The position numbers and the translations under genes were made by a program. The notes under the pieces are model-generated. The model did no database searches and was not told the DNA's origin. It worked only from the letters and a program-made list of their open reading frames with translations. From assembly GCF_013167455.1 (NCBI RefSeq), contig NZ_CP038328.1: a DNA stretch of 64,000 nt, one strand, 5' to 3'. Source of the stretch: Escherichia coli O157:H7. Lineage in GTDB: Bacteria > Pseudomonadota > Gammaproteobacteria > Enterobacterales > Enterobacteriaceae. Every line of letters begins with the position of its first letter. Within the stretch, counting starts at the first letter, position 1. This document shows positions 7,430-59,200 of the stretch, piece by piece.

Positions 7430-7600
<171 letters not shown>

Positions 7601-10704: not shown

Positions 10705-10820
10705 GTATGGTTTGCCGGATGCGGTGCACCTGTAGGCCTGATAAGACGCATCAAGCGTCGCATCAGGCACTATGCTCAAATGCCGGATGCGGCGTGAACG
10801 CCTTATCCGGCCTACGCACA
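10705..10820. repeat. REP elements between yjgA and mpl
   Basis: GCCGGATGCGG...CCTTATCCGGCCTAC and GTAGGCCTGATAAGACGC...CGCATCAGGC motifs. Confidence 0.85.
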
Positions 10821-16959: not shown

Positions 16960-17075
16960 AGCGTGCTCCCAGTAGGCATGATAAGACGCGGTAAGCGTCG
17001 CATCAGGCTTCAGTGCACCATCGCCGGATGCGGCGCGAGCGCCTTATCCGGCCTACGAATCGGCATCAGGCATAG
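16960..17075. repeat. intercistronic REP elements between ytfQ and ytfR
   Basis: GTAGGCATGATAAGACGCG...CGCATCAGGC and GCCGGATGCGGCGCGAGCGCCTTATCCGGCCTAC motifs. Confidence 0.85.
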
Positions 17076-26504: not shown

Positions 26505-26612
26505 TTTATGCCGGATGCGGCGTAAACGCCTTGCCAGGCCTACAAAATCGTCCAAATTCAATATATTGCAAGGACTGCGTAGGCCTGATCGGCATAGCGC
26601 ATCAGGCAGTTT
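26505..26612. repeat. REP elements downstream of msrA
   Basis: GCCGGATGCGGCGTAAACGCCTT...GGCCTAC and GTAGGCCTGATCGGCATAGCGCATCAGGC motifs. Confidence 0.8.
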
Positions 26613-26784
26613 TGCATTTTTCAGCTGTCTGAATTTTAACCCTCTGGCGGCTTTACAGTACCTTACGCTATACTAGCCACTGAAAATGCCGGTTCACTTT
26701 CTTCGAATCGGCTTTCAATGTGTATTTCACACAAATTAATCAACTTCCCCTTCCGAGGATCTGGCCTGAAAGGTCGGATAAGAT

Positions 26785-28754: not shown

Positions 28755-29309
28755 ATGACCCTACGCAAGATTCTGGCACTCACCTGCCTGCTGTTGCCGA
28801 TGATGGCTTCCGCACATCAGTTCGAAACCGGTCAGCGAGTGCCGCCGATTGGCATTACCGATCGGGGCGAGTTGGTGCTTGATAAAGATCAGTTTAGCTA
28901 CAAAACCTGGAACAGCGCGCAGTTAGTGGGAAAAGTGCGAGTACTGCAACATATTGCTGGTCGCACCTCTGCAAAAGAGAAAAACGCGACGCTGATTGAA
29001 GCGATTAAATCAGCGAAGTTACCGCACGATCGTTACCAGACCACCACCATTGTTAACACCGACGACGCGATTCCGGGTTCCGGCATGTTTGTGCGCAGCA
29101 GTCTGGAGAGTAATAAAAAGCTTTATCCCTGGTCGCAGTTTATTGTCGATAGCAATGGCGTCGCGCGCGGTGCCTGGCAGCTGGATGAAGAAAGTTCCGC
29201 TGTAGTGGTGCTGGATAAAGACGGTCGCGTGCAATGGGCCAAAGACGGGGCGCTCACTCAGGAAGAGGTGCAGCAAGTGATGGACCTGCTGCAAAAGTTG
29301 CTCAAATAA
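28755..29309 (+). CDS. ytfJ: periplasmic protein YtfJ, 184 aa
   Basis: Full ORF with signal peptide (MTLRKILALTCLLLPMMASA). Confidence 0.9.
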   Translation: MTLRKILALTCLLLPMMASAHQFETGQRVPPIGITDRGELVLDKDQFSYKTWNSAQLVGKVRVLQHIAGRTSAKEKNATLIEAIKSAKLPHDRYQTTTIVNTDDAIPGSGMFVRSSLESNKKLYPWSQFIVDSNGVARGAWQLDEESSAVVVLDKDGRVQWAKDGALTQEEVQQVMDLLQKLLK

Positions 29310-29329
29310 TGGCAATAACATAAATTCTG

Positions 29330-29371
29330 CAAAAATAATTTTCCCCTATCGTTATCTATGGGATAGGGGAA
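29330..29371 (-). terminator. rho-independent terminator after ytfI (hairpin shared with convergent ytfJ)
   Basis: TTCCCCTATC...GATAGGGGAA 10-bp stem; T-tract on reverse strand (AATTATTTTT). Confidence 0.6.
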
Positions 29372-30310
29372 TTAAGTCTCTGAGTTCTTACGCCGAACTA
29401 ATACTGGTAACGCTAGTTGCTCTTTTTTAAACGCCTCAATGGTCGATTTATATTTCTCGCAAATCTTTTCTTTGGTAATATCACTATCTGCGGCCAGATT
29501 CGCACTTACTATCGCATCCACTTGTTCGGCTAATTCGACTTGTTGGCAACCCGCATTAACCAGAAAATTATAAATAAGAGAGTAATCTTCATCCTCCAAG
29601 ACAACAGAGGAACCATTACGAAAACGTTCATCCCCTCCATAGATTTTAAGCGCAAAGCCCAAAGATTCTATGACTATGGCAAAATTATCATCAATTATTT
29701 TTTCGTAAATATACCATCCATCGCACTGTTTAATTCCACCTCCTGGCCCTTGTAGTTCAAATTTACCCCGTTTTAATTTGCTTACTATATCATCCAATAA
29801 AGCATAACCTAAAGACACGTCACCAATCGCCTGGTGAATATAACCTTTAATCCTTTTCGGTATGTCAGACTGTTTTTTCTGCAGAATATCCCAGGCATAC
29901 AATCGTCTGTTTTGTTCTAACGGAAATTCACGGTTCTTGAAATCCATGAATGAGTTATACTCATTTATTGTTATGGGGATTTCTTCGTATTCAAATCCAC
30001 TGCCTCGCAATGTCATTGTATATTCGGCACCGTTATCTTTAAGGCTGAAACTGATAAGAAACTTATCCATAGCGTTAACAGTTTCATTTTTTGATGAAAG
30101 CACCTGATAACTACTTTTATCAATCTGAGTTGCGCAACGAAAGAACTCCCTCAAAGTTAACAGGCTATCATAATTCGAAATCCAATCTTTTTTCTTAAAT
30201 GCATGATGGATGTTGTTAAAAAAATTGTTTGAATGTGTTTTTGTATACGAAGACTTTACAAATAACTCCACCGCACCAATAAAATTATTGTGTCTGATCC
30301 TGGGTAACAT
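29372..30310 (-). CDS. ytfI: uncharacterized protein YtfI, 312 aa; AT-rich orphan gene
   Basis: Full ORF, visibly AT-rich relative to neighbours, no recognisable domain by eye; same position as ytfI in K-12. Confidence 0.8.
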   Translation of the reverse strand: MLPRIRHNNFIGAVELFVKSSYTKTHSNNFFNNIHHAFKKKDWISNYDSLLTLREFFRCATQIDKSSYQVLSSKNETVNAMDKFLISFSLKDNGAEYTMTLRGSGFEYEEIPITINEYNSFMDFKNREFPLEQNRRLYAWDILQKKQSDIPKRIKGYIHQAIGDVSLGYALLDDIVSKLKRGKFELQGPGGGIKQCDGWYIYEKIIDDNFAIVIESLGFALKIYGGDERFRNGSSVVLEDEDYSLIYNFLVNAGCQQVELAEQVDAIVSANLAADSDITKEKICEKYKSTIEAFKKEQLALPVLVRRKNSET

Positions 30311-31262: not shown

Positions 31263-31451
31263 TTCTCCACCTCGTCTCTGTGAGCGGTGTTAACTTATTG
31301 TTTTACTTATACCCTATCATTAATGAATGCGCCAACTGTGATAGTGTCATCATTTTCAAAGCGTAAAATTGTGGCATTCTTCACTGTTCTATAAGTAAGA
31401 CGTTTATTCTCCCTTTTCTTTCGTATTCCCGATGATAAAAGGATGTCCCTG

Positions 31452-35996: not shown

Positions 35997-36022
35997 ATCT
36001 TATTAAGAATGAGGTATCAGCT

Positions 36023-36685
36023 ATGGCTTATCGCGACCAACCTTTAGGTGAACTGGCGCTCTCTATTCCTCGCGCTTCGGCTCTGTTTCGTAAATATGAT
36101 ATGGATTACTGCTGCGGCGGTAAGCAAACGCTGGCGCGTGCGGCGGCACGTAAAGAACTGGATGTTGAGGTCATTGAAGCTGAGCTGGCAAAGCTTGCTG
36201 AACAACCGATTGAGAAAGACTGGCGTAGCGCCCCGCTGGCAGAAATCATCGACCATATCATCGTGCGCTACCACGCTCGTCACCGCGAGCAACTGCCGGA
36301 GCTGATTCTGCAAGCGACTAAAGTCGAGCGCGTTCACGCCGACAAACCGAGCGTGCCAAAAGGGCTGACAAAATACCTGACCATGCTGCATGAAGAGCTT
36401 TCCAGCCACATGATGAAAGAAGAGCAGATCCTCTTCCCGATGATCAAACAAGGCATGGGCAGCCAGGCAATGGGGCCAATCAGCGTAATGGAAAGCGAGC
36501 ACGATGAAGCGGGTGAACTGCTGGAAGTGATCAAACACAATACCAATAACGTCACACCGCCGCCGGAAGCCTGCACCACCTGGAAAGCGATGTATAACGG
36601 CATTAATGAACTGATTGATGACCTGATGGATCACATCAGCCTGGAAAACAATGTACTGTTCCCAAGGGCGCTGGCGGGTGAGTGA
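36023..36685 (+). CDS. ytfE: iron-sulfur cluster repair di-iron protein (RIC), 220 aa
   Basis: Full ORF; ScdA N-terminal region and hemerythrin-like histidine motifs. Confidence 0.95.
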
Positions 36686-36692
36686 TCTAAAA

Positions 36693-36717
36693 GCTGGATG
36701 GCATTGCGCCATCCAGC
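36693..36717. terminator. bidirectional terminator hairpin between convergent ytfE and cycA
   Basis: GCTGGATGGC-ATTGC-GCCATCCAGC perfect 10-bp stem. Confidence 0.6.
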
Positions 36718-36729
36718 ATGATAATGCGG

Positions 36730-38142
36730 TTATTTCCGCAGTTCAGCAGCCCGCTTCTTACCAATAAACAACCAGCCCAGCCCCAGCGCGATAAACCACA
36801 GCGGGGTAACCAGCAGCGCCTGGCGAGTGTCATCTTCCAGTGTCAGCAACACGACCACGAACACAAAGAACGCCATACATACCCAGCACATCAGCTTGCC
36901 GAGCGGCATCTTGTAGATCGACTTCTCATGTAGATGAGGACGCTGTTTGCGATACACAAGGTACGAGCAAAGGATAATCGTCCAGACGAACATAAACAGA
37001 ATCGCGGAAACGGTTGTAATCATCGTGAACGCGCCAATCACGCTAGGATTCACATACAACATCACCACGCCGCCGAGCAGACAGATACACGAGAAAGTCA
37101 ACCCTTTCGCGGGTACTGCGCGCTTAGAAAGTTTAGCGAACGCTTTCGGTGCCACACCTTCCTGCGCCAGACCAAACAGCATACGGCTGGTAGAGAAGAC
37201 GCCACTGTTAGCGGAAGACGCCGCAGAGGTCAGCACCACAAAGTTGATCACGCTGGCAGCCGCAGGCAAACCTACCAACACAAACAGTTCAACAAACGGG
37301 CTTTTCTCCGGGACTACCGAACTCCACGGCGTCACGGACATAATAACAATCAGCGCGAAGACGTAGAACATAATGATACGGATCGGAATGGAGTTAATCG
37401 CGCGTGGCAGTGATTTCTCTGGATCTTTGGTTTCCGCAGCTGTTGTACCTACCAGCTCAATCCCCACGAAAGCGAAAACCGCTATCTGGAATCCGGCAAA
37501 GAAGCCACTTAAACCTTTCGGGAACCAGCCGCCGTCATTCCACAAATGCGCGAATGACGCTTCCACACCAGTCGGTGACTGAAAGTGCATCGCCACCATG
37601 ACCAGGCCGACGACAATCAGCGACACAATGGCGACGATTTTGATCATCGCAAACCAGAACTCCATCTCACCGAACATTTTCACAGTGGCGAGGTTAAGCG
37701 TCAGCAGCAGCACTATCACCGCCAGCGAGGCGACCCAGTCGGAGAGATCGGGGAACCAGAACTGAGCATAAGCCGTGATCGCCACCACGTCTGCCATACC
37801 GGTTACAACCCAGCAGAACCAGTAAGTCCAGCCGGTGAAATATCCTGCCCACGGCCCGAGTAAATCGGAAGCGAAGTCACTAAAAGATTTGTATTCCAGA
37901 TTCGAAAGCAGCAATTCCCCCATTGCCCGCATCACGAAAAAGAGCATAAAACCAATGATCATATAAACGAAAATGATCGACGGCCCGGCAAGGCTAATCG
38001 TTTTGCCAGACCCCATAAACAACCCCGTACCAATGGCACCACCAATGGCAATAAGCTGAATATGTCGGTTTGTGAGATTGCGCCGTAGCGACTGTTCAGC
38101 CGGAGCCTGATCATCGGCAACGACTTTTACCTGATCTACCAT
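36730..38142 (-). CDS. cycA: D-serine/D-alanine/glycine:H+ symporter (APC family), 470 aa
   Basis: Full ORF, 12-TM amino-acid permease sequence. Confidence 0.95.
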   Translation of the reverse strand: MVDQVKVVADDQAPAEQSLRRNLTNRHIQLIAIGGAIGTGLFMGSGKTISLAGPSIIFVYMIIGFMLFFVMRAMGELLLSNLEYKSFSDFASDLLGPWAGYFTGWTYWFCWVVTGMADVVAITAYAQFWFPDLSDWVASLAVIVLLLTLNLATVKMFGEMEFWFAMIKIVAIVSLIVVGLVMVAMHFQSPTGVEASFAHLWNDGGWFPKGLSGFFAGFQIAVFAFVGIELVGTTAAETKDPEKSLPRAINSIPIRIIMFYVFALIVIMSVTPWSSVVPEKSPFVELFVLVGLPAAASVINFVVLTSAASSANSGVFSTSRMLFGLAQEGVAPKAFAKLSKRAVPAKGLTFSCICLLGGVVMLYVNPSVIGAFTMITTVSAILFMFVWTIILCSYLVYRKQRPHLHEKSIYKMPLGKLMCWVCMAFFVFVVVLLTLEDDTRQALLVTPLWFIALGLGWLFIGKKRAAELRK

Positions 38143-38450
38143 GTTTTTTTCTTCCTGTACCTGTCTGTGTTGTTCAGGCTCTACGGCCTTTAGTCAGTCT
38201 ATGATACGACGAATCTGTATCGGGACTCATCGATATTAGGTAACAATACGCGGGATGAATACTAAGATTTAGATCTAATGTTAATTTTATGTTTAAAGTG
38301 AGTGTCATATCACGGTGATAACGCGAAACAGCTCACAAAAATACACGCTTACGGGGTCTTTGCAACACAAAATAGCGCCGTTTGGCAAACTGAAGGGTTT
38401 ATTGCTGAATGCCTGCTCCCCTCTGGTTCGAGGGGAACAGAATGCGCTGC

Positions 38451-39071
38451 TTAGAGGATTTCCAGCAGTTCGACTTCAAACACCAGGGTGCTGAACGGAG
38501 GGATGGATGCGCCTGCGCCGCGCTCGCCATATGCCAGTTCCTGCGGGATAGTCAGTTCCCATTTAGAACCTACCGGCATCAGAGTCAGTGCTTCAATCCA
38601 GCCAGGGATCACGCCATTAACCGGAAATTCAGCGGGTTCACCACGAGCAACGGAGCTGTCAAACACGGTGCCGTCGATCAGTTTACCGGTGTAATGAACA
38701 CGAACGCGGTCGGTACGTGCCGGAATTGCGCCTTCACCCTGGTTGATCACGCGGAATTGCAGGCCAGATTCGGTGCTATTCACACCTTCTTTTTTGGCGT
38801 TTTCTTCCAGGTATTTCACACCTTCAGCAGCCATCGCCTGGAAACGCTGACGACGAACGGCATCGGCGCGCTCGTGGATTTCACGCAGCGCGCGATGCAC
38901 CACATCAACCGGAACAGCCGGATGTTTGCCTTCCAGCGCATCGGCAATACCTGCAACCAGTGCTTCTGGCAGCAGCCCTTCCAGGCCAGATTCACTCAGT
39001 TGTTGCCCTACCTGCAAACCAATGCCGTAGCTTGCTTGCGCTTCGATGGTGTCAAAAGTTGGGGTGGTCAT
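38451..39071 (-). CDS. fklB: FKBP-type peptidyl-prolyl cis-trans isomerase, 206 aa
   Basis: ORF-track 38451..39230 trimmed to the ATG giving [20 protein letters not shown]; FKBP domain at C-terminus. Confidence 0.93.
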
Positions 39072-39288
39072 CGTATTTCCTTTCTTAGGGTATAAAGTAG
39101 CGGGCAGCATATCAGCCACACTTCTTTGGGTAAAACTTTGTCGCGGGAATGATGACAAATCCCAGGGAAAAAGAAACAATAGCAATATCCCGTATGAATA
39201 TAATAAAGGCGGGTTTACCACGGACATCATAGCGTTAGCTTATTCATAGGCTATGATTGAGGAACAAGACGCGGAGCAGGAGGAAACC

Positions 39289-39927
39289 ATGCCCGGGCGC
39301 TTTGAACTAAAACCAACCCTGGAGAAAGTCTGGCACGCACCGGACAATTTTCGCTTCATGGACCCGCTGCCGCCGATGCATCGTCGGGGGATCATTATTG
39401 CCGCCATTGTATTGGTGGTCGGATTTCTGCTTCCATCTGATGATACGCCCAACGCGCCGGTGGTGACGCGTGAAGCGCAGTTAGATATTCAGTCGCAATC
39501 ACAACCGCCGACAGAAGAACAGCTGCGGGCGCAATTAGTCACCCCACAAAATTATCCTGATCAGGTGGCTCCGGTCGCTCCAGAACCTATACAGGAAGGC
39601 CAGCCAGAAGAACAGCCGAAAACTACCCAAACGCAACCATTCCAGCCAGATAGCGGAATTGATAATCAATGGCGCTCTTACCGTGTCGAACCCGGTAAAA
39701 CGATGGCGCAGCTGTTCCGCGACCACGGACTGCCCGCTACCGATGTCTATGCAATGGCGCAGGTAGAAGGCGCGGGTAAGCCGCTGAGTAATTTGCAAAA
39801 CGGGCAGATGGTGAAAATCCGCCAGAACGCCAGCGGCGTGGTGACGGGCTTAACCATTGATACGGGGAATAATCAACAGGTCCTGTTCACCCGCCAGCCG
39901 GATGGCAGTTTTATTCGTGCGCGGTAG
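39289..39927 (+). CDS. ytfB: OapA-domain cell-division protein YtfB, 212 aa
   Basis: ORF-track 39253..39927; start set to the ATG giving [16 protein letters not shown] preceded by AGGAGG RBS; TM segment, Pro/Gln-rich linker, C-terminal OapA-like domain. Confidence 0.88.
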
Positions 39928-40061
39928 ATGAAGGGTCAACCAAAAGCCAGCTAAGGATTGTCTCTTTGATGACCTTACGTCTGGCTTCCAGTGCCTGGGG
40001 TGAAACCATACTGATGTGTTGACATCCTCCAAGCCCTGAAGGACGTGGATCCCTGCTACGT

Positions 40062-41270
40062 TCAGGCTGTCGCCTGAATCATTTCGGTGGGTTCCTGCTT
40101 CAACGGGCGGCCTGACTGCACCATCTCCCCACAGGCAAGAACGGCGTGCCCCGCCGCTAAAATGTTACGAGCGCCATTTACATCAGCGTTCGCTGTATAT
40201 CCACATGCCTGGCATCTGAATTTACTTTGTGACAGGCGATTTTCTTTCGCTGTATGACCACAGCACGCGCAACGCTGGCTTGTGTACGCTGGCGGAACAG
40301 CAAGCACCTGACCGCCACGCCAGAGCTGCTTGTACTCAAGCTGGCGGCGCATTTCATACCAGCCCTGATCCAGTATCGAACGGTTTAAACCTGATTTTGC
40401 CCGGACATTGCGCCCCGGCTGGCTGACCGTACCCGCTGCTGACTTTGACATGTTGCTGACCTTCAAATCCTCAATGACTATCATTGCGTGGTTTTTGCTG
40501 ACGGTCGTTGTGACTTTGTGAAGGTAGTCCCTGCAGATATTTGCGATACAGGAATGCAGTCGCTGTATTTTGCGTTTCTGCTTCTGCCAGTTGTTGCTGA
40601 ATTTGACCTTGCGGCTTAACTGTCGCTGAAGTCTCGCCAGCGTCTTCTGGTTTTTCTGAAAACTGTTTACAGGTCCAAAGACTGTGCCATCTGACAGCGT
40701 GGCGAGTTTAGCCACGCCAGCATCCAGTCCGACCATTAATGCTGAAGGGTGAACCGGAGTTGATACTTCATTTTCAGTCTGAATACTGATGTACCACTTA
40801 CCGCAGGACTGGCTGGCAGTGACATTTTTCACAACACCCGTGACCTGACGGCTATTCCGGTAGCGCATCCAGCCAAGTTTCGGCAGAAAAATACGGCTGT
40901 TTTCCTGATCGAGCTTAACGCCCTGCGGGTAGCGGAATGCATCATTCTGTCCCCGCTTTTTGAATCGGGGAAAAGCAGCCCGCTTCCGGAAGAAGTTTTT
41001 GTAAGCCCGCTCAAGGTCTTTCAGTGACTGTTGCAATGGCTGTGACGGGGCATCTTTAAGCCATTGCGTTTCAGTGGCATTTTTCCACTCAACCAGCCAG
41101 GAAGCCATTTTCCCGTAAGGGATGTATTTATTACCGGCCTCATGATTCTCATTCTGAAGCGCCAGAGCACGATTGAAAACGAAACGACATGCGCCTGCGA
41201 AGCGCCTCATTTCACGCTCCTGTTGACCACCGGGTCTTAACTGGAATTTAAATGCCTGTAGTCGTTTCAC
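40062..41270 (-). CDS. tnpB: TnpB (IS605 OrfB family; putative RNA-guided endonuclease), 402 aa
   Basis: Full ORF; RuvC-I ([15 protein letters not shown]), RuvC-II ([11 protein letters not shown]), zinc finger CACCGH...CQACGY and RuvC-III ([11 protein letters not shown]) all present. Confidence 0.92.
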
Positions 41271-41277
41271 AGGCCAA

Positions 41278-41709
41278 ATGATACTTTGGTCTGTGAAAAA
41301 AGAAACCGATATCCGGCGTGGAAGGCATTGTGTTTTCCTGATGCATGTTCACCTGGTCTTTGTCACCAGATACCGACGCCAGATTTTTGACCATGACGCG
41401 ACAGAAAAACTACGCACTTACTTTTCAAAGGTATGTGCTGATTTTGAAGCTGAACTGGTTGAAATGGATGGCGAACCAGATCACGTCCATTTGTTAATTA
41501 ACTATCCTCCCAAACTGGCGATATCCAGTCTGGTAAACAGCCTCAAAGGCGTATCGGGTAGGTTACTGCGACGAGATCGACCAGATATTGCAGTCAGGTA
41601 TTACTACAAAGGCGTTTTGTGGAGTCCTGGCTATTTTGCCAGTAGCTGCGGAGGTGCGCCAATATCCGCCATCCGTCAATACATTGAACAACAGCAAACA
41701 CCTGGTTAG
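41278..41709 (+). CDS. tnpA: IS200/IS605-family Y1 (HUH) transposase TnpA, ~143 aa
   Basis: HUH motif (DHVHLL) and catalytic Tyr region (SPGYFASS); divergent from tnpB with start codons ~8 nt apart; true start may be a downstream Met. Confidence 0.9.
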
Positions 41710-41765
41710 GTGGAAAACCGCGCCGTATATCCCCGCCCTGAAGGACGGGGTTTTACGGCGCACCG

Positions 41766-41985
41766 GATAAACCAGGCCAAGCGTATGCTGGTTGATCAAA
41801 TAATATCCCCCAAGCGCAGCAATATTAATATTCACCTGCAATGGGTCGATATCTGGCTTAAAAATATTGTATTTCTTCCCTTCATCCAATAAGGATTCCA
41901 TTAACTGCAAGTGCGCATGGTTGATTTCTAAGAGACGCTGTGATTTTGCATAATGCACACCTTTACTTTGATTTTCACTATGCAC
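41766..41985 (-). pseudogene. ytfA: N-terminal portion of ytfA-like ORF, interrupted by the IS insertion
   Basis: Reverse-strand frame [36 protein letters not shown]... runs from a GTG into IS sequence; a matching C-terminal frame (...[32 protein letters not shown]) lies on the other side at ~39911-40010. Confidence 0.45.
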
Positions 41986-42331
41986 AATTTTTAAAAACCA
42001 GGGGTTAGCAATATAATAATCCCATGTAAAATCAATAATTTTCTCAATGGCTTTTTGTGGCTGGTTAACCTGCTGATTAACGAATACACCGATACCGACA
42101 GCGTAGAATAATTACATACCGCACAACAAGAATGTACGGTGTAAGGCGTGGAAGTCATTTTCTCCCCGGGTGCATCGTTATATCCATAATGAGCGATTTT
42201 TGATATTAATATCTTTCACCATCCGCTATTTTCACCACTTCAGAAAACAAACTTATTTTTATTAATATCGATTTTTTTCTGTGAACATTCAGCTGCGATA
42301 TTTATAAAAACATTAAACAGGTCACATTACA

Positions 42332-43126
42332 ATGACATTACCAACCACTATTTATTCATTTCCTGCATATTTATCTCGTTTTTCGTCCACCGACAAACCA
42401 GTAAAATTAAAATTTCATCAATACGCACGCGCTACATTACTTTCAAATCGTGGAAGAGATCATAATTGCGATGGCAGACGTACTGTTGAGATCCACAAAC
42501 TAGATCTCTCAGACTGGCAAGCATTCAATAAGTTAGCAACGAAGTGTAATGCTTACGATGGAGTAACAATGAATGGTGATAATTCTTTTGGATGGAACCA
42601 TGAAGCTACATTAGATAATATTCACGCCCAGAAATACAATAAAGCTTACGCGGGTGCGAGGTTAACCGCAGAACTGAAATATTTATTGCAAGATGTCGAA
42701 TCCTTCGAACCCAACAGTAAATACACAATACACGAAGTGGTTTTGGGACCTGGTTATGGTACTCCAGACTATACCGGCCAAACGATAGGATACGTTGTAA
42801 CCCTTCCTGCCCAAATGCCTAATTGCTGGTCATCTGAACTACCAACAATCGATCTTTATATCGACCAACTTCGCACTGTTACAGGCGTTTCTAATGCCCT
42901 CGGATTCATCATTGCTGCATTGCTAAACGCGTATTCTGATTTACCCCATGATTTGAAAATTGGTCTGCGTTCCTTATCAAGTTCAGCCGCAATCTACTCG
43001 GGTTTGGGTTTCGAGCGAGTGCCGCAGGAGCGAGACATCAGTTGCGCTCGTATGTATCTAACGCCAGCAAACCATCCTGACTTATGGACACAAGAGAATG
43101 GTGAATGGATCTACTTGCGAAACTAA
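42332..43126 (+). CDS. yjfZ: uncharacterized protein YjfZ, 264 aa; AT-rich orphan
   Basis: Full ORF with AT-rich sequence and long AT-rich upstream region; no recognisable domain by eye. Confidence 0.85.
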   Translation: MTLPTTIYSFPAYLSRFSSTDKPVKLKFHQYARATLLSNRGRDHNCDGRRTVEIHKLDLSDWQAFNKLATKCNAYDGVTMNGDNSFGWNHEATLDNIHAQKYNKAYAGARLTAELKYLLQDVESFEPNSKYTIHEVVLGPGYGTPDYTGQTIGYVVTLPAQMPNCWSSELPTIDLYIDQLRTVTGVSNALGFIIAALLNAYSDLPHDLKIGLRSLSSSAAIYSGLGFERVPQERDISCARMYLTPANHPDLWTQENGEWIYLRN

Positions 43127-43196
43127 TACCTGACGAAAAATAGAAAGCAAAACGCCGACCAGTGGTCGGCGTTTTTACGTCTCGTTGAATAACGAA

Positions 43197-43658
<462 letters not shown>

Positions 43659-43687
43659 TCAAAGTCGTATTAATGGACCGTGACCGA

Positions 43688-44234
<547 letters not shown>

Positions 44235-44240
44235 CAGAAA

Positions 44241-44654
<414 letters not shown>

Positions 44655-44962
44655 TTATTCAGCCTCCTGTCTGGGTCAGCCGAATCCCGGGGAGGCAAGG
44701 AACGTGTTAAAGGTCGGCTGAAAAATGACGCGTTATAGTACTGACATACCCCGCTAAACTCAAGGCCAGCCGACAAATAAATCTCATCTTTCACCAAAGT
44801 GGACTAACACGCTGATTTGAAGTTCATCACACTTCATCATGGTGTTTTTTCGAACAACTGCATCAGAAATGGTCACCATCAACTTCTTTATCATTGATTA
44901 AAATTAAATCAGAAGATCATCACAGAGGAGAGCACACAAAGTCAGCCGTCGAGGAGGTATCT

Positions 44963-45238
44963 ATGTTCAGTCGAGTTTTAGCCCTTCTGGCTGTGCTTTT
45001 GCTAAGTGCAAATACATGGGCAGCCATTGAAATTAATAACCACCAGGCCAGAAATATGGACGATGTGCAAAGCTTAGGCGTGATTTATATCAATCATAAT
45101 TTCGCCACTGAAAGCGAAGCACGTCAGGCATTAAATGAAGAAACAGATGCGCAAGGCGCAACGTACTACCACGTAATTCTGATGCGGGAACCGGGGAGTA
45201 ACGGCAATATGCACGCCAGCGCGGATATTTATCGCTAG
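44963..45238 (+). CDS. yjfY: DUF1471-family small periplasmic protein YjfY, 91 aa
   Basis: ORF-track 44894..45238 trimmed to the ATG giving MFSRVLALLAVLLLSANTWA signal peptide. Confidence 0.85.
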   Translation: MFSRVLALLAVLLLSANTWAAIEINNHQARNMDDVQSLGVIYINHNFATESEARQALNEETDAQGATYYHVILMREPGSNGNMHASADIYR

Positions 45239-45278
45239 CACCAGGTATAACCAACGAAACATTGCCATAGTTTGCTTT

Positions 45279-45303
45279 GCCCCCTTCGCAGGGGGCTTTT
45301 TTT
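45279..45303 (+). terminator. rho-independent terminator after yjfY
   Basis: GCCCCC-TTCGCA-GGGGGC hairpin followed by TTTTTTT. Confidence 0.7.
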
Positions 45304-45366
45304 GAAAAACGGCTGCGGAATTAGACCAGTTATCTCCCGAGGAAGGAAATTTCCGCAGCGCGTGTT

Positions 45367-46053
45367 CTACTTCTGCCCGTAATAAGCGTTGGGGCCGTGC
45401 TTACGCATGAAGTGTTTATTCATCAGGAAGCTGTCGATGTGATTGAGTTGTGGATTAATACTGCGCGCAATCCACGCCATTTTCGCCACTTCTTCCATCA
45501 CTACCGCGTTATGCACCGCGTCGTGGGCATCTTTCCCCCAGGCGAACGGTCCGTGCTGATACACCACAATTCCCGGCGTATGCAGCGGCTCGGCGTTGCC
45601 CAGCGTTTCGATAATCACTTTGCCAGTGTTCAGTTCATACTCACCCTGCACCTCTTCTTCGCTTAATCCACGCGTACACGGGATATCACCAAAGAAGTAG
45701 TCAGCGTGCGTGGTGCCTAACGCCGGGATCGCCAGCCCCGCCTGCGCCCATGCGGTAGCATGAGTGGAGTGGGTATGGACAATGCCGCCAAGCGACGGAT
45801 AACGACGGTAGAGTTCGAGATGCGTCGCGGTGTCGGAAGACGGACGATATTCCCCTTCCACCACCTTACCGCTCATATCGACCACCACCATATCGTCTGC
45901 TTTCATGGTTTCGTAGGCGACGCCGCTGGGCTTGATCACCACCAGCCCGCGTTCGCGGTCGATAGCGCTGACGTTGCCCCAGGTAAAGGTCACCAGCCCA
46001 TAGCGCGGCAGATCCATGTTGGCTTCAAACACCTGCTGTTTTAGCTTTTGCAT
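45367..46053 (-). CDS. ulaF: L-ribulose-5-phosphate 4-epimerase, 228 aa
   Basis: ORF-track 45367..46101 trimmed to the ATG giving [21 protein letters not shown]; start overlaps ulaE stop by 1 nt. Confidence 0.95.
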
Positions 46054-46907
46054 TATGCCGCCTCCACCATGCCCGCTTTCGCCATGCGCGCTTTCACCCA
46101 ATCACGCGCTTTCGCCACTTCTGCCGCCGGGTCTTCCGCCGTTTCGCTCCACATCTCAATCAGGTACGGCCCGCAATAGCCACTCTGTTTGAGCGTTTCG
46201 AAGCAACGTTCGAAATCCACCACACCTTCGCCAAATGGCACGTTTTTGAAGACGCCCGGTTTGGTGTCTTTCACATGTACCGCGACGATATGCCCGATTC
46301 CGGCCTGCAACTCCATCTGCACATCGTTGTCCCACGCCGACAGGTTGCCGATATCCGGGTAGAGCTGGAACCACGGATTGTTGAGATAGTGCGCGTAGCC
46401 CAGCGCCTTGCTGATGGAGTTCATCAACGGATAATCCATGATCTCCATCGCCAGCGTCACCTGCGCGCGGCTCGCCATCTCAACGCTCTCTTTCAGGCCG
46501 TCACGGAAACGACGACGCGTTTCGTTATTGGCTTCCTGATAGTAAACGTCATAGCCCGCCAGTTGGATCACGCGAATACCAACGTCCTGGGCGAACTGGA
46601 TAGCTTTACGCATAATCTCCAGCCCCTGCGCCCGCACCGCGTCATCTTCACTGCCCAGCGGGAAACGACGATGAGCAGAAAAGCACATGGACGGCACGCG
46701 CACGCCGGTTTCAACAATCGCATTCACCAGCGCCAGACGCTGCTCGCGGCTCCAGTCGAGGCGCGACAGGCGCTCGTCCGTTTCATCTACCGACATCTCG
46801 ACAAAATCGAAGCCCAACGTTTTTGCCAGTTGCAGGCGTTCCAGCCAGCACTCCCCGGCGGGGAGCGCTTTTTCATAGATGCCAAGCGGGATTTGTTTGG
46901 ACAACAT
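46053..46907 (-). CDS. ulaE: L-ribulose-5-phosphate 3-epimerase, 284 aa
   Basis: Full [45 protein letters not shown]... (TIM-barrel sugar-phosphate epimerase). Confidence 0.95.
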
Positions 46908-46916
46908 ATCCGCTCC

Positions 46917-47567
46917 TTAGCCCCACAGTTCGGCGATGGAACGTTTGAACTGACGTGCGGCTTCCACCGGAGAAGCGGCATCACGGATACTACGGCCCGC
47001 GATAAAGACGTGAATCGGAATGCCTTTGAACAGCGGCAGATCTTCCAGCGCCAGGCCACCAGTGACGGTGACTTTGAAGCCCATATCGGAAAGACGTTTG
47101 ATCGCGGTGATGTCCGCTTCGCCCCACGCCACGCCTGCGGCCTGCGCGTCACGGCTGCGGTGATAAACCACCTGCTGAATACCTGCGTCGCGCCACTGTT
47201 GCGCCTGTTCCCAGGTCCAGTAACCGGTCAGTTCGATCTGCACGTCGCCGTTAAACTCTTTTGCCACGTCCAGCGCGCCTTTGGCGGTGTTGATATCCGC
47301 ACAGCAAATTACCGTCACCCAGTCAGCGTTGGCTTCGAAGCACATACGCGAAAGGATTTTGCCTGCATCGGCAATTTTGGCGTCTGCCAGTACGATTTTG
47401 TGCGGGTAGAGCGCTTTCAGGTCACGAACCGCACGCACGCCTTCGCCCACGCACAGAATGGTGCCCACTTCGATAATGTCGACTTCTTCGGCAATCAGGC
47501 GAGTGGTTTCGTAGGCGCTATCCATAGTCTGGTTGTCCAGCGCGACTTGCAACATCGGTAATGACAT
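46917..47567 (-). CDS. ulaD: 3-keto-L-gulonate-6-phosphate decarboxylase, 216 aa
   Basis: ORF-track 46917..47765 trimmed to the internal ATG giving [20 protein letters not shown]; start coordinate may be off by 1 nt. Confidence 0.93.
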
Positions 47568-47580
47568 GTTCAATTCCTTC

Positions 47581-48045
47581 TTAAGCTGCCGCGTTGGTGC
47601 GGTCAATGAGATCCAGTACTTCCTGCTCGGTACGGCAGGCGCGTAAACGGTCAAAATTCTCTTCATCTTCAAACAGGTTGACGATCTGCATGATGCCCAC
47701 TTCCTGGTGAGTATTGGCATCGACCGCCGCCATGGTGATGAGGATATCCACCGGATCGTTGTCATCGTGGTTGAACTCCAGCGGCTTTTTCAGCGTTACC
47801 AGAGAGAAACCGGTTTTCTTAACGCCCTCTTCCGGACGCCCGTGCGGCATTGCCAGGCCCGGAGCGATAACGAAATAAGGACCGAACTGTTCAACGCCAT
47901 CCAGAATCGCCTGGTAGTAACGCGGCTCTACCACATCTGCCGCCACCAGCAGGTCAACGCCGATTTTCACCGCTTCCTGCCATGTCTCTGCTTCAGCCTG
48001 CAGACGGATGGATTTATTTTCAGCCAGCGAATCACGTAATTTCAT
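47581..48045 (-). CDS. ulaC: PTS ascorbate-specific EIIA component, 154 aa
   Basis: Full [32 protein letters not shown]... Confidence 0.95.
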
Positions 48046-58501: not shown

Positions 58502-59200
58502 TTACTCGCCCTGTTGGCGTTGCAGTCTTGCTAATACATCCTGGGCGCTACTTTTATTGCTACCGCCAATTCCGGCTTCCGCCAGCTTTTCGTCAAGGTC
58601 GCGACCGTCTGCGACTTTTTCTAACTGTGCGGCAGCATCCAGGCGAGCCTGACGTTCGGCCTGACGCGTTTGCAGGCGTTTTAAGGATTCTGCTGCTGTC
58701 GAAACGCTGGAAGATGCGCCAACGGTAGAAGTCGTTACAGCCTGTTGTGCACGCTGCATGGCTTCAGTGGCTTTAACGACTTCCATTTGCTGCTCAAACT
58801 GAGCGATACGCTGCGCTGTCGCTGCAACTGCTTTTTCCACGCCATCACGGGAGACTTCCAGATTCGACAACACTTGCTCTTCAGCGGTAATGAGATTCTC
58901 AAGGCGCGCGATTTCTTCAGCAACTTCGTTAATCAACGACGGATTAACGTTCTTGCTTAACGCTTCCAGCGTACGGGCTTCCAGACTGGCTTTGCGCTCA
59001 CGTAAATCTTTCAGCTTATCGTGACTTAATTTCACCCGCGCCAGCAGATCAACGCGAGATTTTCCGGCTTTATCGAGTTCAGCTTTAGCGTCACGAATAT
59101 GCTGTTCCAGCATGCGCACACCCTGGGTTTCTTCAATGGATTCTTCCGCCTGGGAGATAAACGATTTCCCCAGCGTAAATAAACTTTTTAAAATTCCCAT
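58502..59200 (-). CDS. yjfJ: PspA/IM30-family protein YjfJ, 232 aa
   Basis: Full ORF; long coiled-coil sequence typical of PspA/Vipp1 (ESCRT-III-like) proteins. Confidence 0.9.
   Translation of the reverse strand: MGILKSLFTLGKSFISQAEESIEETQGVRMLEQHIRDAKAELDKAGKSRVDLLARVKLSHDKLKDLRERKASLEARTLEALSKNVNPSLINEVAEEIARLENLITAEEQVLSNLEVSRDGVEKAVAATAQRIAQFEQQMEVVKATEAMQRAQQAVTTSTVGASSSVSTAAESLKRLQTRQAERQARLDAAAQLEKVADGRDLDEKLAEAGIGGSNKSSAQDVLARLQRQQGE

Follow-up and report, generated by a model that had tools for sequence, protein, structure and literature searches.

Between ytfB and the ribosomal protein gene rplI, Escherichia coli O157:H7 carries a 1.14-kb AT-rich segment that consists of the gene yjfZ and the DNA upstream of it. 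Did this segment arrive as foreign DNA, or does it have another history? We examined it at positions 41986-43126 of a 64,000-nucleotide stretch of contig NZ_CP038328.1 (assembly GCF_013167455.1), hereafter the window. An earlier sequence-only reading had called the segment AT-rich, and this holds in compositional analysis: its GC content is 39.7%, against 51.4% for the whole window, and falls at the 1.55th percentile among windows of the same size. The same reading proposed that yjfZ and the neighboring ytfA, a target of an insertion sequence (IS), form a small ancient islet. We instead find that the segment is probably a deletion scar together with yjfZ, an accessory gene of separate origin, the two having been joined by the deletion.

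The region upstream of yjfZ is a mosaic of three pieces

The ~350 bp upstream of yjfZ had been treated as one AT-rich region. The 346 bp at 41986-42331 are AT-rich (34.1% GC, 0.94th percentile), but they are not a single intergenic region. They consist of the last 76 bp of a 5'-truncated ytfA (41986-42061, minus frame), a 111-bp relic of a 3-ketoacyl-acyl carrier protein (ACP) reductase gene, and the native flank of yjfZ. The relic (42057-42167, plus strand, listed core 42062-42150) is non-coding and corresponds to nucleotides 80-191, about codons 27-60, of the reductase gene. By blastn it aligns with the intact gene of strain HS at 82% identity (E = 7e-22; 5828-5939 of L002, where L numbers denote comparison loci). 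The reductase gene is the first gene of the deleted operon. When the relic was used as a query in 'distant' mode, ~3100 genomes matched inside an annotated intact 3-ketoacyl-ACP reductase gene.

Both ends of the relic are marked by short repeats. Junction 1 (42057-42064) carries the microhomology GTGGC(T/G)GG and is the site of a 536-bp deletion, which took the N-terminus of a TetR gene, the spacer between the TetR gene and the operon, and the initial 79 nt of the reductase gene. In a three-way alignment of the window with the TetR and reductase genes of HS, the 7-bp direct repeat GTGGCGG lies at both parental breakpoints. Junction 2 (42143-42167) is the site of a ~7.3-kb deletion. There, a four-way alignment reveals an imperfect microhomology of ~25 bp between the reductase gene and the spacer that separates an MFS transporter gene from yjfZ. 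Homology to this MFS-yjfZ spacer in strain AR_0374 starts at ~42150/42165-42168. All five scar alleles that we examined are colinear through both junctions. Because the scar holds truncated pieces of genes that are whole elsewhere, the direction of change, a loss, is unambiguous. Because the junctions lie in short direct repeats, two deletions account for the arrangement found in K-12 and O157.

The scar alleles form two classes that differ in the crossover point within junction 2 (window 42143-42167 versus ~1300-1330 of L009 and L010). The O157/K-12 class stays with the reductase sequence longer, and the AR_0372/EC556 class follows the MFS-yjfZ spacer. Divergence of the relic between the classes reaches 18%, which exceeds the synonymous divergence (dS) of yjfZ. 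The two classes reflect either repeated deletion or later gene conversion.

Putting these pieces together, we propose that the ancestral Escherichia ytfB-rplI interval would have held a TetR-family repressor gene divergent from an operon of coenzyme A (CoA)-dependent enzymes with an MFS or TRAP transporter. Two deletions (536 bp and ~7.3 kb) would then have removed ~7.9 kb from the lineage that gave rise to K-12, O157:H7 and ~41% of sequenced E. coli. The leftovers would be the C-terminal half of the repressor gene, now called ytfA, and the 111-bp relic; the insertion sequence IS609 would have entered the dead ytfA later.

The intact island in other strains

Strain HS has a 215-aa TetR gene divergent from eight genes, and rplI follows directly, with no yjfZ. 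The eight genes encode a 3-ketoacyl-ACP reductase, a sugar-phosphate isomerase/epimerase, an enoyl-CoA hydratase, an acyl-CoA:acetate/3-ketoacid CoA-transferase, a ~690-aa flavin adenine dinucleotide (FAD)-dependent oxidoreductase and, in three genes, a TRAP transporter. AR_0374 has the same regulator and five enzymes, followed by an MFS transporter, yjfZ and rplI. Intact islands are also found in NRG857C and ET490. From the TetR gene to the rplI terminator the island measures about 9-10 kb, and it is intact in about 58% of E. coli.

We counted the arrangements among 5426 complete E. coli genomes. The scar type, with a truncated TetR gene, the relic and yjfZ, occurs in 2228 genomes, the MFS-type island in 1693 and the TRAP-type island (at least 80% coverage) in 1446. 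These sum to ~5360, in agreement with the 5361 genomes that carry the relic or an intact reductase gene. yjfZ is present in 2538 genomes (47%), and therefore only ~310 MFS-type islands have it. This pan-genome check, one that the sequence-only reading had called for, identifies yjfZ as an accessory gene.

The TetR gene has been reported from only some E. coli, yet from all E. fergusonii and E. albertii strains examined (PMC6790063). Because it is found in all examined strains of these two species, the TetR part is ancestral and not an insertion. The published distribution fits an ancestral island being lost by E. coli lineages.

Several further observations concern the island itself. Across L002 (5749-10291), L004 and L005 (3925-11344), the deleted genes encode a short-chain reductase, a TIM-barrel isomerase, an enoyl-CoA hydratase, a CoA-transferase and a large FAD oxidoreductase. 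The MFS and TRAP cassettes are alternatives, and homology of the two forms ends inside the 3' end of the oxidoreductase gene. GC content is 39.5% for the TetR gene and 50-55% for the enzyme genes. Independent erosion of the locus continues in some strains: E8 carries another internal deletion and an IS1, and in 2017.06.04CC ytfA is gone together with the 5' two-thirds of yjfZ, next to an ISKpn26.

ytfA was a pseudogene before IS609 entered it

The sequence-only reading described ytfA as disrupted by an IS. IS609 does interrupt it, but ytfA was already a pseudogene lacking its DNA-binding N-terminus. K-12 has the same truncation and bears the scar without the IS; therefore, the IS609 insertion postdates the truncation of ytfA.

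The 5' piece of ytfA (41766-42061, minus strand) encodes the TetR C-terminal, ligand-binding domain alone (Pfam TetR_C_29, E = 1.3e-15) and shares 99% identity with the 3' part of the complete TetR gene (215 aa) in HS. RefSeq annotates its K-12 counterpart as a TetR/AcrR regulator 'missing N-terminus'. Upstream continuation of the open reading frame (ORF) is blocked, with all three minus-strand frames closed by stop codons. The 3' piece (39911-40018, minus strand) is severed from the remainder by the IS and overlaps the 3' end of ytfB. The pseudogene is annotated in K-12 at 2889-3290 of L001, and blastn aligns L001 2878-2996 with window 39900-40018.

TetR/AcrR regulators combine an N-terminal helix-turn-helix (HTH) with a C-terminal domain, and they are divergent from the operon that they control. 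HS and AR_0374 keep this layout, a full-length gene (215 aa) facing a six- to eight-gene operon. The window retains TetR_C_29, but 81 N-terminal codons of the HS gene, which include the HTH, are deleted, the entire target operon is gone and IS609 splits the remnant. The spacer with the TetR operator and promoter is deleted as well, leaving the remnant without a native promoter. ytfA belongs to the TetR/AcrR family by descent, is now a pseudogene and cannot act as a repressor.

IS609 (40019-41765, 1747 bp, no strand assigned, named by RefSeq) has the hallmarks of the IS200/IS605 family: a Y1 (HUH) TnpA, a TnpB, hairpins at both ends and no target-site duplication. Its tnpB (40062-41270, minus strand) matches Pfam OrfB_IS605 and Cas12f1-like_TNB and the NCBIfam model guided_TnpB (E = 3.4e-113). 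Its tnpA (41278-41709, plus strand) matches Pfam Y1_Tnp (E = 1.8e-41) and NCBIfam transpos_IS200. The subterminal hairpin repeats (repeat family D1) lie at 40028-40048 and 41730-41750. K-12 runs unbroken across the insertion point without a duplication and is otherwise colinear with the window except for 40019-41765.

Strains that look unrelated (O157, dog isolate D6, AR_0372, platypus isolate A2 and blood isolate 4750) share an IS609 copy at one and the same position of ytfA, and tnpA or tnpB has decayed in some of them. Either the insertion is old and was inherited vertically, or the element targets this site specifically. Of the 5426 genomes, 5014 have IS609, at a median of 2 places.

yjfZ is a selected gene restricted to E. 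coli

The product of yjfZ (42332-43126, plus strand) had been read as an intact 264-aa protein with no recognisable domain. The ORF is intact as described, with a GC content of 42.1% (35.8% at third codon positions, GC3). The statement about domains is contradicted by Pfam PF10887 (DUF2686), which YjfZ matches with 517.6 bits and an E-value of 8.2e-156, residues 5-264 aligning with profile positions 17-285 (gathering score 25 bits). The YjfZ sequence is identical to that of a cluster of 3950 E. coli proteins. We found nothing on DUF2686 in the literature that we searched.

Nine intact yjfZ alleles have a mean ratio of nonsynonymous to synonymous divergence (dN/dS) of 0.25, with dS up to 0.10. 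Between the same genomes, divergence reaches 18% in the relic and 10% in the 5' flank, and is 3-4% in the yjfZ coding sequence. As judged from these alleles, the data indicate that yjfZ is under purifying selection, weaker than that on core genes, and has long been resident in the species.

YjfZ has few relatives. A word-indexed search of 5.8 billion proteins returned nothing but YjfZ itself. An exhaustive phmmer search of 1.84 billion cluster representatives gave 23 matches: 21 were fragments of YjfZ or its paralog YjiC, and two, P0024 and P0026, were rejected as spurious multi-stretch matches to long repetitive proteins. A pattern scan covering 100,044 GTDB species, with one genome per species, found only two loci. 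One is the E. albertii ortholog of yjiC, identified by its neighbors UxuR, UxuB, UxuA, GntP and an IraD-like protein. The other is a 1283-bp contig, JAIJJM010000835.1, in a 'Collinsella sp.' metagenome-assembled genome; it encodes a protein 95% identical to YjfZ and is almost certainly E. coli contamination of the bin. The E. coli species representative was not among the matches and evidently lacks both paralogs, and so the scan informs on other species and not on prevalence within E. coli. tblastn found no yjfZ match in 50,697 phage records. Among 72,556 plasmid records it matched only records of 0.37-4.9 Mb typed as non-mobilizable in PLSDB, and the one such 'plasmid' that we inspected bears chromosomal genes such as uxuAB, gntP and iadA. 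Searches of NCBIfam, PADLOC and PHROGs with YjfZ and YjiC yielded nothing usable.

The sequence-only reading had named a universal yjfZ of normal composition with a housekeeping homologue as the finding that would speak against it. The gene is instead found in 2538 of 5426 genomes, is AT-rich and has no relative outside Escherichia among the 1.84 billion proteins or the 100,044 species genomes searched. We take yjfZ to be a genuine gene that is under selection, evolves fast and is confined to E. coli.

The paralog YjiC (b4325, 276 aa) is ~40% identical to YjfZ, and NCBI names the two the 'YjfZ/YjiC family'. They share full-length homology (38% identity in our alignment, with 39 invariant positions), a similar length, AT-richness (40% GC for yjiC) and restriction to Escherichia. 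They differ in context and distribution: yjiC, between uxuR and iraD, occurs in 90% of E. coli genomes and also has an ortholog in E. albertii, whereas yjfZ, beside rplI, occurs in 47% and was not found beyond E. coli. Between E. coli and E. albertii, YjiC retains just 65% identity (L007 4135-4956 versus L020 4854-5684), compared with 95-99% for UxuA, UxuB and UxuR and 78% for IraD. Going by these comparisons, DUF2686 proteins evolve unusually fast.

YjfZ has been presented as a conserved signature gene of E. coli and Shigella (PMC11057252). The 'YjfZ' quantitative PCR (qPCR) assay of that study targets yjiC (L020 5125-5238): the forward primer and probe fit it perfectly, the reverse primer differs at one position, and the amplicon has the published length of 114 bp. 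Neither of its forward primers (qPCR and Sanger) matches the window even with 3 mismatches allowed.

YjfZ is predicted to have a GNAT-like fold

Aside from DUF2686, profile searches of YjfZ gave no significant link to a characterised family. Structure prediction goes further. In the AlphaFold2 model of YjfZ the mean predicted local distance difference test score (pLDDT) is 56.5, with core C-terminal blocks at ~70-89. The order of elements is strand, helix, hairpin, long helix, three strands, helix, strand, helix, strands. This is the order of the mixed-sheet GNAT alpha/beta fold, beta1-alpha1-alpha2-beta2-beta3-beta4-alpha3-beta5-alpha4-beta6(-beta7). The YjiC model agrees with it (mean pLDDT 61.5). 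A Foldseek search of the PDB at E <= 1e-3 gave 98 matches, and all those among the 50 of 98 listed are GNATs. On the strength of these models, we have good confidence that YjfZ has a GNAT-like fold.

Conservation follows the predicted fold. The residues that are invariant between YjfZ and YjiC lie in the C-terminal 140 residues, in the pattern Y-T-x-H-E-x-x-L-G-P-G ... G-x-T-I-G-Y ... P-x-I-D-x-Y-I-D-Q-x-x-T-V-x-G-V-x-N-x-x-G-F-x-x-A-A-L-L-N-A ... I-G ... G-[FY] ... R-M-x-L-x-P. They group on the predicted beta-2/beta-3, beta-4/alpha-3 and alpha-4 elements. The most conserved block runs from the end of predicted beta-4 into alpha-3, the position that holds the CoA pyrophosphate in GNATs. D174 and D178 in beta-4 and a Tyr or His in alpha-4 occupy the usual positions of GNAT catalytic residues, as placed by secondary structure.

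YjfZ would then be a highly diverged GNAT-fold, acyl-CoA-dependent N-acyltransferase, whose best-conserved block would comprise the catalytic strand beta-4 (I-D-x-Y-I-D-Q) and the CoA-pyrophosphate loop (T-V-[TS]-G-V-[SA]-N-x-x-G-F). That YjfZ is an active acyl-CoA N-acyltransferase is a tentative proposal drawn from the model, and we hold it somewhat less probable than not. Compared with members of the GNAT superfamily such as BH2621 (2qml), toxin 7byy, TacT, AtaT, AAC(6')-Ib, SpeG, PaiA and the acyltransferase domain of DfoC, YjfZ has 5-18% identity and no significant profile match. It also differs from GNATs in having Thr in place of Gln or Arg at position 1 of motif A, and in its extra N-terminal ~45-100 residues with an inserted hairpin.

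yjfZ occupies a variable slot before the rplI terminator

The native 5' flank of yjfZ (42168-42331, plus strand, 164 bp) has a GC content of 29.9%, is shared with the island-keeping strain AR_0374 and is the probable promoter region. Downstream, yjfZ and rplI share a bidirectional intrinsic terminator (43149-43175, both strands) with a 12-bp stem and T-runs on each strand. Homology among all haplotypes resumes at this terminator, which forms the right boundary of a variable slot. The contents of the ~40 bp between the MFS and rplI terminators vary (yjfZ, hipA with an HTH gene, or nothing), and therefore this interval is a hot spot for cargo. We propose that yjfZ would be a ~1.05-kb single-gene cassette in this hypervariable slot. 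In NRG857C (E. coli O83:H1, L018 3921-5683) the slot is filled by a type II toxin-antitoxin-like pair, a HipA-family toxin and an HTH protein; in ET490 (L019) it is empty.

The K-12 spacer between yjfZ and ytfA contains a site for RpoD holoenzyme and an H-NS site in vitro, as found by genomic systematic evolution of ligands by exponential enrichment (SELEX) (PMC3946193). An FlhDC SELEX peak has also been listed near yjfZ (PMC9962212). Because the TetR operator/promoter spacer is deleted, promoter activity must come from the 164-bp flank of yjfZ or from fortuitous AT-rich sequence of the scar. A consensus promoter scan found 5 sites against 4.6 expected in shuffled sequence, none of them in the native flank of yjfZ. 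From the H-NS and RpoD binding at the K-12 flank, yjfZ is probably silenced under laboratory conditions. Like the AT-rich 'xenogeneic' genes that H-NS silences in enterobacteria, yjfZ has a low GC content, a patchy distribution and an H-NS site in its K-12 5' spacer. Unlike them, it has no identifiable donor or mobile vector, and its allele diversity points to long residence in E. coli.

We also considered a 55-aa antisense ORF (41991-42158) as a gene. It has a good Shine-Dalgarno sequence, but a 2-bp indel shifts the frame, leaving 11-15 codons in other alleles, and it was rejected.

Surroundings of the segment

The segment lies, as described before, between ytfB (39253-39927, plus strand) on the left and rplI (43197-43646, minus strand) on the right; rplI is followed in map order by rpsR, priB and rpsF, all on the minus strand. 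Positions 41771-43180 are 100% identical to O157:H7 strain PV15-279. Further to the left is cycA (36730-38142, minus strand), followed in gene order by fklB. The latter encodes an FKBP-type isomerase in most records and is bamJ, 'BamJ family beta-barrel-assembly machinery protein', in the newer RefSeq annotation of the identical protein WP_000211225.1 (strain E8, L017 5428-6048). Two other parts of the window are low in GC: 29200-30000, with 33% near 29700, which is below the yjfZ region, and 58900-59200, with ~39-40% near 59000.

Rfam families match at gathering score at 7436-7506, 10735-10812, 16975-17053, 26544-26723, 31329-31451, 411-526 and 44634-44718. The families are naRNA4 (three copies), ES036 and STnc450, ES239, the Magnesium-II riboswitch element and, ahead of rpsF, the RpsF leader. 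No Rfam family matches within 41700-43300.

Weighing the alternatives

Could ytfA and yjfZ have arrived together as the foreign cargo of a small islet, brought by a phage, plasmid or integrative element? Low GC and GC3, H-NS binding in K-12, the patchy presence of yjfZ and the adjoining IS all agree with such an origin. We nevertheless consider it improbable, because the full-length regulator and operon stand at the same locus in most E. coli, and the regulator gene is also reported from E. fergusonii and E. albertii (PMC6790063). The locus also lacks the marks of a classical genomic island, having no tRNA gene in 36000-48000, no flanking direct repeats around yjfZ and no integrase ORF. No phage or true plasmid in the searched records carries yjfZ, its dS of up to 0.10 speaks for long residence and not for recent transfer, and IS609 came after the truncation. 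The accessory, foreign-looking character that the sequence-only reading saw in the locus does stand (patchy, AT-rich, no relatives beyond Escherichia in the searched proteins and genomes); its two-gene islet structure is wrong, and ytfA and yjfZ are the ends left by an island deletion. It is also unlikely that yjfZ is a decaying or functionless ORF, a former gene or GNAT-derived pseudo-enzyme kept because it is silenced and free of cost. Its absence from 53% of genomes, its frequent inactivation by frameshifts, IS insertions and a 5' deletion, its degenerate GNAT motif A and the lack of a reported phenotype in the searched literature suit this explanation. Against these stand a dN/dS of ~0.25 over nine alleles, all with an intact ORF (the frameshifted or truncated copies are in four other genomes), adjoining non-coding DNA that diverges 3-5 times faster, and 39 invariant positions that are shared by paralogs of 34-40% identity and grouped in predicted active-site elements.

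Two other explanations assign yjfZ a particular role, and both were down-weighted. One gives YjfZ a part in conflict, where it would be a toxin of the GNAT type, an effector that is secreted, or an acyltransferase serving immunity or detoxification, and would evolve fast in an arms race. Its structural neighbors include tRNA-acetylating toxins (7byy, TacT2/3, AtaT), aminoglycoside acetyltransferases and Mom of phage Mu. Evolution within the family is very rapid, with 65% identity for YjiC against 95-99% for the neighboring UxuA, UxuB and UxuR when E. coli is compared with E. albertii. In NRG857C a hipA toxin-antitoxin module fills the slot of yjfZ, and disorder is predicted for the N-terminal ~50 residues of YjfZ. 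Type II GNAT toxin-antitoxin loci (TacAT, AtaRT, KacAT) have a small RHH or HTH antitoxin gene directly before the toxin gene in one operon. This layout is absent at yjfZ, where neither the 164-bp 5' flank nor the 22 bp from stop codon to terminator contains a conserved ORF. We give a conflict role a small chance. Smaller again is that of the broader proposal that DUF2686 is an Escherichia-restricted, fast-evolving GNAT-fold offshoot in conflict between bacteria or with hosts, with yjfZ and hipA among interchangeable cassettes at the rplI-terminator hot spot. The other explanation makes yjfZ the functional last gene of the CoA-dependent catabolic island, using acyl-CoA from the pathway and orphaned in scar genomes. 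This is hard to reconcile with its presence in only ~310 of 1693 MFS-type islands and in no TRAP-type island examined, with the terminator-like hairpin after the MFS gene, and with a GC content of 42% against 50-55% for the enzyme genes. The paralog yjiC lies in an unrelated context between uxuR and iraD, and yjfZ is under purifying selection in genomes that lack the operon. We therefore regard an island role as improbable.

Some observations also weigh against the account that we prefer, a deletion scar joined to a selected accessory gene with a GNAT-like fold. The different crossover points in junction 2 mean that a single deletion event is not certain. yjfZ has been inactivated repeatedly, by frameshifts in D6 and AR_0374, an IS1 insertion in one genome and the ISKpn26-associated 5' deletion; therefore, selection on it is weak or conditional. 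The searched literature held no expression, binding or activity data for YjfZ. As for the fold, the models are of middling confidence and derive from a shallow alignment (13-15 sequences in two paralog groups), with residues 1-49 and 61-103 unreliable. No Pfam family besides DUF2686 matched YjfZ at E <= 10, and neither the whole protein nor its C-terminal core gave a significant match in PDB profile searches (best GNAT 2qec, E = 0.46). Motif A, Q/R-x-x-G-x-G/A, is only partly kept, as T182-V-T-G185-V-S187 in YjfZ and T-V-S-G-V-A in YjiC. The Gly never varies, Ser or Ala stands at position 6 and Thr at position 1, the block having been placed by secondary-structure positions and not by residue-level superposition.

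Implications

Every element of this locus falls in a known category, be it a TetR pseudogene, IS609, a microhomology-mediated deletion, an H-NS-bound AT-rich gene or a DUF family provisionally assigned to the GNAT fold, and no new kind of system is present. Possible novelties are the assignment of a fold to DUF2686, the reconstructed scar and the slot as a hot spot.

These findings bear on how the locus is used and named. The deletion scar matters for work that uses K-12 ytfA as a regulator; a CRISPR interference (CRISPRi) screen, for example, treats ytfA as a regulator while noting its pseudogene status (bioRxiv 10.64898/2025.12.20.695731). yjfZ, with 47% of complete genomes against 90% for yjiC, is not a conserved signature gene of E. 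coli. A DUF shared by two K-12 y-genes gains the hypothesis that its members are GNAT-like acyltransferases. Finally, ytfA and the AT-rich DNA upstream of yjfZ in K-12 and O157 are explained as the microhomology-mediated deletion scar of a lost CoA-dependent catabolic island.

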